A stretch of 64,000 nt of DNA, taken from an uncultured Gemmatimonadales bacterium. GTDB lineage: Bacteria; Gemmatimonadota; Gemmatimonadetes; Gemmatimonadales; GWC2-71-9. The stretch lies in assembly GCA_963730915.1 (NCBI GenBank), contig CAVSTR010000004.1, forward strand, positions 609,114-673,113. Direction: 5' to 3'. Shown in pieces: positions 20,730-63,813 of the stretch. The notes under the pieces are model-generated. The model was given only the letters and a program-made list of their open reading frames with translations. It did no database searches and had not been told where the DNA came from. Each line of letters begins with the position of its first letter. The stretch's first letter is position 1. The position numbers and the translations under genes are program-made.

Positions 20730-22202
20730 GTGAGCTCCGGCAGACCTTCGGCCAGGAATGTCGACCTGAGCATTGGTTGCGTTACGCTCTTCCTCCTGCC
20801 GTTCGCTGGAGTTGGGCTCTTCACCGCGGCGATGGCGGTGCAGCGGCTCGCCGCCCACAACTGGACTGAAGCGCTCTTCTTCGCGCTGTTCGCCCTGACA
20901 TTCGGTGGTGTCGGAATTGGCGGCATAATCGCAGCGCTGGCTGGTCGCCGGACGCTGAAAGCGCAGGAACTGCTTCAGGCGAGCCACCCCGATACACCCT
21001 GGCTGTGGCGGCAGGATTGGGCCTCCGGGCACATTACCGATTCCAGCCGCAGCACCATGATCGGCACATGGCTGTTCGCCACCCTGTGGAACCTGATCGG
21101 CTTTCCTACAGGGTTTCTTTCGGTTCGCGCTGCCCTGAGAGAAGGCAGACCGGCCGCGTTCCTCGGGCTGCTATTTCCCATCGTAGGCGTTGGGCTGGTG
21201 GTCTGGGCCATCAGAACAACTCTCCGTCACTGGACATACGGTGTCTCCCGCCTCGAGCTTGCCACCGTGCCTGGCGTGGTTGGCAGGAGCCTCATCGGCA
21301 CGGTCCGCGCGCCTTCCATGATTCAGGCGGAGCAGGGGTTCGACCTGAGTTTGACATGTGTTCGCCGGATGACCCATGGAGGCGGGAAGCAGAGATCCAC
21401 ATCCGAAAGCATCCTGTGGCAGGACGTGCAGCGGGTTCCAGGCCGACCGTTCCGGGCGCCCGCCCGAATGGAAACGCACATCCCGGTAGCCTTCCGCATC
21501 TCGGCAGACGCGCCCTCCTCCGACGCCAATAACCCGGCAAATCGGGTAGTCTGGCAGCTCCAGGTCTCGGCCGACGTGCCCGGGGTGAACTACGAGTCAC
21601 GTTTCGACGTCCCCGTCTTTCGAACCCCAGCCAGCGAACAGCCGCTTTCACCCGAGGAGACTCGGCTCACTCAGGTTGCCGATATCACTGTATATCAGCA
21701 GCCCGCCGATTCTCGCATTCTGGTGAGTGCGACACGCCGGGGCACCGAGATTCTGTTTCCCGCCGCTCGCAACCTGGGCGTGGCGGTGAGCCTGACGGTG
21801 TTTCTCCTGATATGGCTGGCAGGGGTGGGTCTTCAGATCTACTTCGGCGCGCCGCTGATTTTTCCGATCGTCACCGGACTCTTCGCGCTGCTTCTTGTGG
21901 TCGTGGTATTGGACTTATGGCTCCAGGTATCACGCATCAGAGTGACTGCGGGGTCGGTTTCGTGGGCCACGGGATACATCGTCCCCGGGCGCGAGCACAT
22001 GATCCCAGCCTCGGAGATCGCCGAAGTCAGCGCCACAACCGGCATGCAGGCAGGCAACAGGGTGTACTACGATGTCGTGATCGTTCGGAAATTCGGAAAG
22101 AAGATCAAGGTGGGTCACTCGGTTCGCGACAAGCGCGAGGCCGATTGGCTGGCAGGTACGATTAAGAAGGCGTTAGGCCAGGAGCCGGGAGTTAGGAGCT
22201 AG
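20730..22202 (+). CDS. polytopic membrane protein, unknown function
   Basis: 490 aa. About 4 N-terminal TM helices, a ~170-aa soluble middle, 2 more TM helices (LGVAVSLTVFLLIWLAGVGL, LIFPIVTGLFALLLVVVVLDLWL), and a ~90-aa C-terminal domain. The last codons and the TAG stop lie inside the heptamer repeat arm. Confidence 0.6.
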   Translation: MSSGRPSARNVDLSIGCVTLFLLPFAGVGLFTAAMAVQRLAAHNWTEALFFALFALTFGGVGIGGIIAALAGRRTLKAQELLQASHPDTPWLWRQDWASGHITDSSRSTMIGTWLFATLWNLIGFPTGFLSVRAALREGRPAAFLGLLFPIVGVGLVVWAIRTTLRHWTYGVSRLELATVPGVVGRSLIGTVRAPSMIQAEQGFDLSLTCVRRMTHGGGKQRSTSESILWQDVQRVPGRPFRAPARMETHIPVAFRISADAPSSDANNPANRVVWQLQVSADVPGVNYESRFDVPVFRTPASEQPLSPEETRLTQVADITVYQQPADSRILVSATRRGTEILFPAARNLGVAVSLTVFLLIWLAGVGLQIYFGAPLIFPIVTGLFALLLVVVVLDLWLQVSRIRVTAGSVSWATGYIVPGREHMIPASEIAEVSATTGMQAGNRVYYDVVIVRKFGKKIKVGHSVRDKREADWLAGTIKKALGQEPGVRS

Positions 22203-22267
22203 GAGCTGGCAACTATTCAGCGCGTGCGGCTTGCACCTCCCAGCTCCCAGCTCCTGGCTCCTGACTC
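22178..22267. repeat. inverted arrays of heptamer [AG]GGAGC[TC] forming a hairpin between convergent genes
   Basis: Left arm 22178-22209 (CCAGGAGCCGGGAGTTAGGAGCTAGGAGCTGG). Right arm 22236-22267 (CCTCCCAGCTCCCAGCTCCTGGCTCCTGACTC) is its imperfect reverse complement. 26-nt spacer. Confidence 0.85.
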
Positions 22268-22745
22268 AACGCGCTGGAGGAGCGAGATTCCCGCAGGCAA
22301 TAATGGTTGACATGTTCTGCCTGGAAGCGTGCACGTTGATGAAGAACTCGCCTGTCCTTGGCGTCGCAACTCCGAGCTCTGCCTTGGAGGTTGCACGCCC
22401 GTCGTTGTTCACTTCGAGCGGTTTGTAGGCATCGGCCGGCCCGAAGATCCCCTGGTCGGCGCCGCACCGTCCCCGATGCACATGCCAGGGATGCTTGCCG
22501 CCCGGCACCGCGTTCGACACGTTAACCTCTGCGTCAGTGCGGTCGGCATTCTTTTCCTGCGGCCCCATCCAACCTGATCCACGAATCGATGAGACCCCGG
22601 CGAGCTCGGGTGGGCTGGAGAGCGACCCATTCCATCGGTTCTGCACCGGCGCAGTGTTGGGATCGATCTCGACTGCCCGCCGGCCGCCGCAGGAACTACC
22701 GGCGAGTGCCAGGACGATCAGGCTGGCAGTGATGGTGGCCTTCAT
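22266..22745 (-). CDS. lipoprotein with Cu/Zn-superoxide-dismutase-like motif
   Basis: ORF 22266..22832 trimmed to ATG 22745. Lipobox LALAGSSC. HPWHVHRGRCG resembles the SodC H-x-H-x-G-x-C copper-site motif. Family assignment is tentative. Confidence 0.5.
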   Translation of the reverse strand: MKATITASLIVLALAGSSCGGRRAVEIDPNTAPVQNRWNGSLSSPPELAGVSSIRGSGWMGPQEKNADRTDAEVNVSNAVPGGKHPWHVHRGRCGADQGIFGPADAYKPLEVNNDGRATSKAELGVATPRTGEFFINVHASRQNMSTIIACGNLAPPAR

Positions 22746-22828
22746 GGGGTTCCTCCGAAGATGGGGTGAATAGCCGAGGGTTATATGCCGATGAATGCAG
22801 TTGCAACGCCGTGACGAGCGACACACGG

Positions 22829-63300: not shown

Positions 63301-63525
63301 GACGTGAGGATGCTGGAGCTGGGCTGCGAGCAGCACTTCACGATGAAACCGCTCGAAGGAGATGCCGGCCAGCAGCTCCGGCGCGAGCACCTTCACGACG
63401 ACTCGGCGGTTGAGCGACTGCTCCAGGGCAAGATAGGTGCGGGACATGCCGCCGCCGCCCAGCTCGCGCTCGAACGCATACGTTCCCGCCAGTGCCTGCT
63501 CCAGCCTGACGCGCAGCTCGTCCAT
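60357..63525 (-). pseudogene. Ser/Thr protein kinase with TM segment and C-terminal TPR domain, one frame disruption as sequenced
   Basis: The kinase domain is in ORF 61894..63525 (GGGGMSRTY, VVVKVL, HRDIKPDNVLL, DFGIAK, YMAPE). The continuation MPAALAELIMTCLAKDPDGRP plus TM plus TPR is in ORF 60357..62780. The frames switch at about 62789-62790 (CATCCGCCCC on the coding strand). Confidence 0.85.
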
Positions 63526-63585
63526 TCCTGCCTCTGTTCGTGGAATGGGCGGAATATGCCGGTGAGCGCGGGGGTTAGCCAGTAT

Positions 63586-63813
63586 GAGCTGGGAGCTGGG
63601 AGCTAGGAGCTAGGAGCAACGTTGTCATCCTGAGCCCTTCGACTTGCTCAGGGTAAACTCCGCGAAGGTCTCTCCGAGAGGTAGATCCGGGCTCGGACTT
63701 GGACGAGAGGTACCGGTGGGTTCTGCGGAGGCACTGCGATCCCAATCACAGAACCAGATTCCCGCGTTTCGAGCTCCCAGCTCCCAGCTCCCGGCTCCTA
63801 GCTCCCAGCTCCC
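63586..63813. repeat. composite palindromic element: heptamer GGAGCT[GA] arms flanking a TGTCATCCTGAGC-containing core
   Basis: Left arm 63586-63617 (GAGCTGG GAGCTGG GAGCTAG GAGCTAG GAGC). Box TGTCATCCTGAGC at 63623. Right arm 63771-63813 (GAGCTCC CAGCTCC CAGCTCC CGGCTCC TAGCTCC CAGCTCC C) is the reverse complement of the same heptamer family used at 22.2 kb. Confidence 0.85.

Follow-up and report, generated by a model that had tools for sequence, protein, structure and literature searches.

What are the short tandem arrays that crowd the gene spacers of a 64-kb stretch of DNA from an uncultured Gemmatimonadales bacterium (contig CAVSTR010000004.1; the whole stretch is called the window), and how are they related to the TGTCAYCC boxes that lie beside several of them? 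The original prediction had taken both as parts of a non-autonomous element system, or of a repeat-generating process, with a modular design of arms and cores, and had found no described system to match it. This last statement did not survive comparison with the literature: the arrays are members of a described bacterial class of heptamer/octamer simple sequence repeats (SSRs; units of 5-11 bp; PMC4692102), and the box appears to belong to the superfamily of repetitive extragenic palindromes (REPs) that carry a CGTC/TGTC tag (PMC3733652). We consider it probable that slippage-driven arrays and REPs together make up mosaics in permissive DNA, similar to bacterial interspersed mosaic elements (BIMEs), and not one modular transposon.

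The window has a G+C content of 60-70%, and a fragment of its leucyl-tRNA synthetase (LeuRS) finds its best matches in Gemmatimonadales (the top matches in genome and metagenome collections being 69% and 76%), which places the window in this order. We compared it with five syntenic relatives, namely L160 and L161 from JGI, L163 and L164 from ENA and L162 from NCBI (loci of relatives are L-numbered and homologous proteins P-numbered below); the DNA identity of its genes to those of L160 is 81-89%.

The nine array loci of the original list all exist, with the coordinates given there. Tandem Repeats Finder (TRF) recovers every array in it except the right arm at 49972-49991, which is below the length handled by the program and was read directly from the sequence. 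The arrays have periods of 7 or 8, 2.6-13 copies and 76-100% matches by TRF, and are built from at least six unit families within 42 kb, four of the six unit types being octamers. Each unit is G-rich on one strand. Arrays of period 7 or 8 with at least 2.9 copies number 12 in the window against 0.63 expected, the expectation being the mean of 200 Markov-simulated windows with the same dinucleotide content; the simulated windows held at most 4 arrays with a best score of 42, against scores of up to 172 in the real one. Three unit types, GGAGCTR, CAGCGGGG and GGCGGTA/TACCGCC, are confirmed by blastn at two loci each. The arrays are the following:

22178..22209 (+): left arm of about four GGAGCTR units (7 bp); TRF 22180-22207; overlaps the 3' end of the open reading frame (ORF) 20730-22202
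22236..22267 (+): right arm, inverted, of YAGCTCC units; TRF 22237-22254; abuts the stop of ORF 22266-22832 (minus strand)
30102..30126 (+): arm of about three GGGGCAGC units; TRF 30104-30126; immediately upstream of the point where the fdhB-like gene starts (30097, minus strand)
30169..30203 (+): inverted arm of 4.4 CCCCGCTG units (TRF); follows the stop of fdhA directly (30208, minus strand)
34633..34672 (+): single array of about five TACCGCCY units (8 bp; TRF) in a divergent spacer
46227..46339 (+): single array of about 14 CCCCGCTG units with TTACCCGC variants; TRF 46230-46339, 11.6-14 units
48408..48500 (+): single array of 13 GTCTGGC units (7 bp; TRF), upstream of where the amidohydrolase gene starts
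49804..49838 (+): left arm of about four GGCGGTAK units; TRF 49806-49830; starts where the EgtB-like gene stops
49972..49991 (+): right arm of about 2.5 TTACCGCC units; overlaps the stop of the M48 peptidase gene
52560..52598 (+): single array of 4.5 GTCCGCCT units (TRF), in the divergent spacer between the methyl-accepting chemotaxis protein (MCP) and LeuRS genes
53445..53482 (+): array of 4.6 GGAGGGWC units; TRF 53445-53481; in the LeuRS coding sequence, in the loop after NWLGRS
63586..63617 (+): left arm of 4.6 GAGCTRG units (TRF)
63771..63814 (+): right arm, inverted, of six AGCTCCC units; TRF 63772-63814

By TRF, 30104-30126 and 30169-30203 are both arrays of the CAGCGGGG family. The build of arm, core and inverted arm is true of some arrays: four loci carry inverted pairs (22178/22236, 30102/30180, 49804/49972 and 63586/63771), which fold as single-stranded DNA into long hairpins (z = -3.3, -8.2, -5.2 and -4.7, respectively), and the other five of the nine loci are single arrays with neither partner nor core. 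Eight loci are intergenic, lying between Pfam-supported genes, and the ninth is inside LeuRS. The intergenic ones are found at convergent gene ends (two), between cistrons (two) and upstream of gene starts in divergent or similar spacers (four), and the arrays typically fill the spacer up to the adjoining stop or start codons; in the largest, at 46227-46339, the cyanophycinase stop (46322) is within the array, and the start of cphA is at 46180. A CRISPR array, with repeats of about 24-48 bp, unique spacers and cas genes, can be dismissed, as the units here are contiguous, 7-8 bp long and free of spacers, and Pfam detects no cas domains. A candidate flank motif common to both GGAGCTR loci, GATTCCCGC, was likewise given up, its 4 matches against 1.2 expected being equalled in 3 of 100 shuffles.

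The word TGTCAYCC occurs 15 times in the window against 4.4 expected, and is found at the positions originally listed. Only the copies that bear the rest of the motif group together; there are 10-11 REP copies in the 64 kb. Fourteen copies from the window and its relatives can be aligned free of gaps as TGTC-ATCCYGAGC-NNN-GCGARGGAT-CNN: the tag is TGTC in ten, AGTC in two and CGTC and ACTC in one each, with columns 3-4 (TC) invariant; the stem has nine positions, with seven Watson-Crick pairs flanking a tandem G.A mismatch, and begins with AT in 8 of the 14; the loop has 3 nt (GAA, AAA, GTA and others), and the tail is CGC, CGG or CTG. In the register proposed, 88.8% of the cells of this alignment are paired, as against 19-45% in slid registers, and compensatory changes are seen in five of the seven stem pairs, the variants changed on both sides being ATCCC/GGGAT, ATTCC/GGAAT, ATTTC/GAAAT, ATCCT/AGGAT and ACCCT/AGGGT. 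There are also long variants with 10-40 nt between the stem halves and extra hairpins in the loop. The REPs of the window, including head-to-head dimers of a kind also present in L160, L161, L163 and L043, are the following:

28265..28363 (+): head-to-head REP dimer, left TGTCATCCTGAGCGAAGCGAAG, right inverted TGCCACCCTGAAAGCAGCGAAGGG, between fdhE-like and nrfD-like genes; no array
49858..49959 (+): head-to-head, REPIN-like dimer (REPIN, REP doublet forming a hairpin) of 102 bp, TGTCATCCCGAACGTAGTGAGGGATCGC plus inverted partner; core fold z = -7.0
53483..53528 (+): degenerate REP TGTCACCCTCGGCGTAGCGAAGAGG and, after it, two CAGCGGGG units (53506-53520); inside LeuRS
53531..53566 (+): REP TGTCACCCTGACCCCTCGCGAAGCGAGGGGGAGGGG, inside LeuRS; the same copy is in L160, read as DVTLTPREARGRG
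53951..53993 (+): REP in the LeuRS editing domain, read as CHPERSEGAEAPLE; the peptide is identical in several relatives
54811..54930 (+): two GTCATTGCGAG-type REPs (54811, 54895) plus a half copy, in the C-terminal part of LeuRS, read QSLR...EAIP
63623..63670 (+): single REP of the long subtype TGTCATCCTGAGCCCTTCGACTTGCTCAGGGTAAACTCCGCGAAGG; same subtype in L164 at 7496

In the dimers, the two inverted REPs are about 45-70 nt apart (49858-49959, 28265-28363, L160 7084-7203 and L163 366-464). Seven of the nine boxes originally listed are genuine. The remaining two are chance matches: that at 46215 is a bare octamer beside an array with the rest of the motif lacking, and that at 48559 lies in unique 5' sequence conserved in L160, where the word is missing. 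The list had also overlooked the inverted partner ending at 28363 (minus strand), the GTCATTGCGAG-type copies at 54811 and 54895 and the two-unit CAGCGGGG stretch at 53506-53520, the last of which is brought out by blastn.

The REPs tagged by CGTC were described as having an unpaired tag that is often changed to TGTC (or is CCTC), a stem of 8-9 bp starting from AT, a loop of 4-5 nt and a 3-nt tail near CCA; they mostly form head-to-head dimers, include some intragenic copies and have no dedicated transposase known (Di Nocera et al. 2013, PMC3733652). Their superfamily includes the Rickettsia RPE-4/RPE-6 and the Neisseria dRS3 (PMC3733652). Our box resembles them in its CGTC/TGTC tag, the 8-9-position stem starting with AT, the short loop and unpaired tail, the head-to-head dimers, the translated intragenic copies and the lack of an adjacent transposase. 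It differs in its 3-nt loop (not 4-5), its CGC/CGG tail (not CCA), the tandem G.A mismatch in the stem and the hairpin-bearing long variants. Since loop length and tail differ, we keep it outside the four named families, as what seems, from sequence and predicted stem, to be a REP-like member of the superfamily. This comes close to a match with a previously catalogued family of REP/BIME type. Gemmatimonadota are unnamed in the text of PMC3733652, and a full-text literature search did not find the box sequence; similar boxes are seen in the Dehalococcoidia loci L039, L043 and L064. At gathering thresholds, Rfam has no family for any array or box.

How closely are the two kinds of repeat tied to each other? 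The distance from the end of a REP tag to the array is 0 nt at 53483, 5 at 63623, 12 at 49959 and 19 at 49858, and L161 and L163 show comparably close spacing. The order of array then box within 0-60 bp, which had been claimed for four cases, holds at 49804/49858, 53445/53483 and 63586/63623 and in mirror image at 49959/49972; at 48408/48559 it is lost with the spurious box. A hand tally over six clade loci gives about 8 spacers holding both an array and a box, against about 5 expected, so that across spacers the coupling is weak and unconvincing. Both repeat kinds occupy and enlarge the few long spacers, and, given the weakness of this tally, we take the coupling to be real at certain conserved loci without being a rule. 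They might meet through ectopic conversion guided by REPs or by inserting into hairpin tips, which would account for their closeness as well as for the dispersal of unit families. Put generally, the structure is a palindrome with a tandem array as its outer stem, a REP being one possible centre in the clade of the window. No target-site duplication (TSD) was seen by eye at the ends of the four composites, no systematic search having been made, and a clean empty site was not found, as L160, which is without arms at the M48 spacer, keeps a REP dimer there.

The relatives show orthologous persistence together with fast turnover of copy number, unit variant, orientation and core. The spacer between cphA and the cyanophycinase gene has an 8-bp array at the same position in all four genomes that possess it, with (CCCCGCTG)x14 in the window, (TACCCGCT)x4.5 in L160, (CGCTTCCC)x10.6 in L163 and (GCCTACCC)x3.9 in L164; the units differ by one or two bases between genomes, and all of them keep GGG(G) at intervals of 8 nt on the mRNA strand. 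Such a pattern is one of concerted evolution. The MCP/LeuRS spacer holds (GGCGGACG)x4 in L163 and L164; in the window an array of this family is inverted along with about 20 adjacent bases, and in L160 and L161 there is (GGCAGCGG)x3.6, of a family that is found elsewhere in the window. The spacer between the EgtB-like and M48 peptidase genes has arms of the TACCGCC type around a REP dimer in the window, L161 and L163, a single REP with remnants of arms in L164, and a REP dimer with no arms in L160, the REP core being different in each genome. Over the adjoining 6.3 kb, L160 is 99.65% identical to L161, yet the two have nothing in common in this spacer; the contig of L161 ends there, and a larger rearrangement is possibly behind the difference. 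Where the window has its GTCTGGC array, at 48408, L160 has a GTCATTGCGAG REP instead. Every break in the blastn alignment between window and L160 over 13 kb coincides with an array or a REP. At the fdhA-fdhB spacer, the CAGCGGGG arm (remnants of that at 30169-30203) is translated as 'AAGQRG' in over-extended FdhB calls of many assemblies, some of them with both arms and some with one short arm. These calls prolong the N-terminus of FdhB by 13-96 residues (29300-30229 on the minus strand in the window; proteins P0121-P0131), and spurious extensions of the form 'AAGQRG...SSPAAPLP' are present in many database entries for FdhB.

Beyond the syntenic relatives, we surveyed 72 Gemmatimonadota LeuRS loci (942 kb), counting the periods that are not divisible by three. 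Period 7 is the commonest with 53 arrays, followed by 8 (26), 5 (5), 10 (3) and 11 (1), and 88 loci of other phyla show the same peak of 7 over 8. Among 101 arrays there are about 16 credible inverted pairs (17 were detected, of which that of L025, 327 bp apart, is doubtful), with gaps of 0 to about 290 nt; 7 of the 17 have strong hairpins as cores (z <= -5.6), and the others have short or unstructured loops. In L022 a hairpin stands between 19 and 7.5 units, and in L102 the arms directly abut each other. Array pairs at different sites share a unit in 12% of the cases within a locus, against 1-2% between loci; the unit families are genome-specific. Two loci have composites that occur twice with the same heptamer arms and related palindromic cores: in L011 the two copies, at 1114-1331 and 6695-6913, share a palindromic core of about 120 bp between their arms, and L018 has an arm-core-arm structure with two hairpins at 3748-3883 and 15564-15713. 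These are the best hint of dispersal of the composites as units.

The LeuRS gene (52694-55420) is split over three frames. Two single-base lesions are responsible: near 52965 there is one base too many, and near 53570 one is missing (GGGGCC in the window vs GGGGCCC in L160). A one-base deletion at about 52965 and a one-base addition at about 53570 restore a continuous LeuRS of 908 aa, which can be aligned from end to end with that of L160 (873 aa). Similar single-base frameshifts are present near 62810 in the kinase-TPR gene and near 49100 in the EgtB-like gene, and, given these, the lesions in LeuRS are probably assembly indels and not the mark of a pseudogene. The lesion at about 62810 (kinase 61894-63525/TPR 60357-62780, minus strand) cuts the Ser/Thr kinase domain at position 211 of 263 in the profile, and the signal of G+C at third codon positions changes frame there with no gap; that at about 49100 lies in the EgtB-like gene (48591-49804), where its DinB-like part gives way to the FGE-sulfatase part.

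The LeuRS of the window differs from that of L160 mainly at three sites, 53440-53585, 53951-53993 and 54811-54930, all of them inserts of REPs or arrays. The insert that bears the array has 89 nt against 24 in L160, and the resulting shift of +2 is offset by a loss of 2 nt just upstream (GAG-GGC codons), so that the frame is kept; it continues across the array and the first REP, then across the two CAGCGGGG units, and into the second REP, which is read as DVTLTPREARGRG just as in L160. The idea that the 8-bp array makes LeuRS a split or phase-variable pseudogene was rejected, as the insert is frame-compensated and the two remaining frameshifts lie outside the array. In 120 LeuRS homologues from databases, the same loops carry peptides translated from REPs, in all three frames and in reverse orientation (CHPERSEG, VILSAAK/VTLSAAK, SSRAEREI, QSLRG..EAIPQQ, LSPRAQRGG), as well as peptides derived from arrays, such as GKAGRAGKTGR and GGRADGRTGGQADGRS. 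This clade-wide comparison (P0002-P0060) covers the first two sites, the third having been compared with L160/L161 and L162 only. In-frame arrays occupy the first site in more distant relatives too, with 4.4 copies of GGACCGAC in L001 and 3.4 of GAACGAG in L018. From the sequences, the insert sites would be tolerant surface loops of the enzyme, and both repeat kinds, being translated here, accumulate wherever sequence is tolerated. Moreover, the same loop has peptides derived from tandem repeats in unrelated lineages (L044 at about 9893-10007 and L083 at about 2347-2437; e.g., TDPLLTDPLLTDPLITDSLIT in an Anaerolineae metagenome-assembled genome), by which it appears to be a place where repeat insertions are frequent in general.

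Set beside described systems, both component repeat kinds are already on record. Heptamer repeats in bacteria were the subject of a survey in 2007, reportedly by Mrazek et al. in PNAS, and Elhai et al. 2008 are said to have noted small dispersed repeats beside heptamer arrays in Nostoc. The 2007 survey, as it is cited in PMC4692102, found an excess of heptamers in bacterial genomes, for which the sole explanation offered is a match in length between the unit and the stretch of DNA that the polymerase holds (PMC4692102). In Xanthomonas, 70-75 inverted (convergent) pairs of GGGAATC arrays are capable of forming stem-loops (Rehm 2015, PMC4692102), and the STRR (short tandemly repeated repetitive) heptamers of cyanobacteria (Nostoc; PMC4692102) and the TAACTGA repeats of Beggiatoaceae (PMC4679880) are further short tandem repeats of this kind. 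Our arrays agree with this class in their near-perfect head-to-tail units of 7-8 bp in 2-14 or more copies, their excess relative to base composition and their peak at period 7, their almost wholly intergenic position, their genome-specific families and the variation of copy number and unit sequence among close relatives; like those of Xanthomonas, they form inverted pairs. They depart from it in having at least six unit families in 42 kb with no single dominant unit, in the four octamers among six unit types, in arms that flank REP or palindromic cores and in arrays within an essential coding sequence. Gemmatimonadota are not mentioned as hosts in the short-tandem-repeat literature that we compared.

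The mosaics formed with the REPs have likenesses of their own. The BIMEs of Escherichia coli are intergenic mosaics of alternately oriented REP hairpins and short motifs at gene ends or between cistrons. Ours too are intergenic mosaics of REP hairpins with other short motifs in such places; here, however, the partners are tandem arrays of 7-8 bp and not the S/L/r/l motifs, and the tag is TGTC and not GTAG. REPIN/RAYT systems combine a GTAG tag with a cognate gene for a REP-associated tyrosine transposase (RAYT) flanked by REPs (Bertels and Rainey 2011, PMC3116915). Two inverted REPs form a long hairpin in our dimers as they do in REPINs, whereas there is no GTAG tag, and no RAYT was found in the window or the syntenic loci. 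Ogata et al. 2000 reportedly found Rickettsia palindromic elements in-frame in conserved proteins, in surface loops and in all reading frames. These are likewise small palindromic repeats translated within a conserved protein, and the differences are that ours occupy three sites of a single essential enzyme, occur in a free-living soil clade and involve tandem arrays as well. In the foldback transposons of eukaryotes, the inverted arms are tandem arrays. Porphyromonas gingivalis is reported to have a minisatellite inside a bacterial MITE, a miniature transposable element with inverted repeats (PMC4596501). The likeness to these two is one of architecture only, in that tandem repeats lie within a small inverted-repeat element: the composites have inverted arms, but the signature of terminal inverted repeats (TIRs) with TSDs, a clean empty site and a link to a transposase were not found.

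How, then, do such mosaics come about? We favor a scenario in which arrays of 7-8 bp would arise, grow, shrink and homogenize by replication slippage, often being made into the inverted arms of hairpins through intrastrand template switching across a palindrome, and REPs would be spread in trans by an activity encoded elsewhere. Mosaics of array, REP and inverted array would in this manner fill spacers up to the adjoining stop and start codons, along with the three loops of LeuRS, and would have no host function beyond side effects such as hairpins at the 3' ends of mRNAs. What had been predicted is upheld to the extent that this is a non-random, non-coding and non-autonomous repeat family with a repeat-generating process involved; a single modular mobile-element system is not borne out, with no TSDs seen by eye and with arrays that persist at orthologous spacers while the core changes. 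Several observations weigh against our scenario. Unit families (GGAGCTR, CAGCGGGG, TACCGCCY, GGCGGACR) recur at non-orthologous loci, both within the genome of the window and in related genomes, for which local slippage alone is insufficient; the recurrence of arm and core together in L011 and L018 looks like dispersal; and the sharp preference for 7-8 bp has no mechanistic explanation beyond the conjecture of a polymerase footprint. For these reasons, we keep open a dispersal or repeat-generating mechanism. Arrays sit in the same spacers across species whose genes have a DNA identity of about 81-89%, which could reflect selection for function, and this long persistence at fixed spacers likewise keeps a functional role open. 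Finally, variation of copy number within a population has not been observed directly, and the source assembly has single-base indels.

The recurrence of units is what a composite miniature transposon of the foldback type would predict, in which the array arms serve as TIRs and the REP or palindrome as the core, the whole being moved by a transposase encoded elsewhere (e.g., a RAYT or an HUH enzyme of the IS200/IS605 type that acts on hairpin DNA). Besides the arm units found at two loci each in the window and the sets of arm and core in L011 and L018, it could draw on unit families common to related genomes at non-orthologous sites (e.g., GGAGCTA and TACCGCCC in L163) and on the MCP/LeuRS array, which together with about 20 nt has opposite orientations in the window and in L163 although its flanks are conserved. 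However, no composite end has a TSD by eye, copy number and order of variants differ between arms and between loci, and five of the nine loci are lone arrays. The M48 spacer has orthologous arms in the window, in L161 and in L163, and L164 retains a remnant of them, but the core is not the same; this is the opposite of movement as a whole unit. In line with the original statement, no transposase was found: Pfam detects no transposase, reverse transcriptase or Cas protein in the approximately 50 ORFs scanned in the window, and no Y1/HUH transposase, and the gene calls of the five syntenic loci have neither transposase nor RAYT. We deem such a transposon unlikely. Slightly less likely again is a hairpin-linked process, in which the arrays would be more than passive microsatellites, palindromes would grow their stems by units of 7-8 nt and a clade-wide repertoire of units would be dispersed together with the REPs by an HUH-type enzyme that mobilizes REPs or by ectopic gene conversion under the guidance of REPs.

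Selection on cis-elements can be argued from the same persistence: the arrays would provide binding sites at regular intervals or would form G-quadruplexes ((CAGCGGGG)n and (GGAGGGAC)n being candidates), the hairpins would stabilize or terminate mRNAs, and both would be kept for regulating their neighbors. The arrays retained at the cphA, MCP/LeuRS and fdhA-fdhB spacers, the genes being only about 81-89% identical in DNA, the G-richness of all units on one strand with the GGG(G) of the cphA spacer every 8 nt on the mRNA strand, and the very stable hairpins of paired arrays at convergent gene ends and between cistrons all agree with it, and comparable proposals were made for the Xanthomonas GGGAATC (PMC4692102) and the Beggiatoaceae TAACTGA (PMC4679880). 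Yet strand and distance to start and stop codons are inconsistent, the MCP/LeuRS array is inverted in the window and belongs to another unit family in L160, one spacer is wholly different between strains with flanking genes 99.65% identical, the hairpins are not followed by a U-tract, the same units are also found inside coding sequence, and there is no Rfam family match; we accordingly hold this to be rather improbable. That the repeats are due to chance, or are artefacts of error-prone long-read assembly of G+C-rich DNA, is hardly credible: the assembly is indeed not free of errors, with at least four single-base frameshifts in otherwise intact genes of the window, but simulations give 0.63 arrays where 12 are observed, translated arrays and REPs appear in database proteins from many other assemblies, and the presence of the same array families at orthologous spacers in independent JGI, ENA and NCBI assemblies refutes an artefact.

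What is new lies in the details, namely array arms around REPs of the CGTC type, a clade-wide repertoire of units and the repeated colonization of an essential synthetase. The cause of the excess of heptamer-scale repeats in bacteria and the spread of CGTC REPs with no known transposase are both unexplained so far. The Gemmatimonadales clade, which combines hairpin-arm arrays around REPs, unit families that span species, fast turnover in near-identical strains and inserts in LeuRS, is a compact natural system for weighing slippage against dispersal and for gauging the repeat load that a core enzyme tolerates. If true, the hairpin-linked process would be a bacterial counterpart of foldback elements, able to colonize loops of essential proteins. 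On a practical level, such loci break assemblies and mislead gene callers (as in the FdhB N-termini and the spurious peptides of the 'CHPERSEG' type), and they can be used as strain-typing markers of the variable-number tandem repeat (VNTR) kind.

The remaining features of the window are those of an ordinary chromosome, according to Pfam results for about 50 ORFs. Gene sets supported in this way include a betaine ABC transporter, serA/serC-like genes, an ergothioneine cluster, LeuRS, a Ser/Thr kinase, a selenocysteine formate dehydrogenase operon and Ku with LigD; no tRNA or tmRNA genes are present in the window. The cluster at 38841-48385 consists of three genes for cyanophycin-synthetase-like/Mur-ligase proteins, one for a cyanophycinase (S51 peptidase) and one for an amidohydrolase, which is probably an isoaspartyl dipeptidase. 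The largest array, at 46227-46339, sits inside this cluster, between the cyanophycinase stop and the cphA start. A non-homologous end-joining module at 1670-4568, with an ATP-dependent ligase, the LigD primase-polymerase and Ku, may be of relevance to the repair of breaks at hairpins. The TGA at 32872-32874 (minus strand), which is in frame in the gene for the alpha subunit of formate dehydrogenase and lies in the motif NQARI-U-HSS, is a selenocysteine codon, so that the ORFs 30208-32802 and 32872-33600 make up a single gene. Lastly, between the genes for the M48 peptidase and the MCP, some 245 bp (50905-51148) are inverted relative to L160 (8120-8361), the two segments being 85% identical on opposite strands, and in L160 a 20-bp tandem repeat adjoins this segment.

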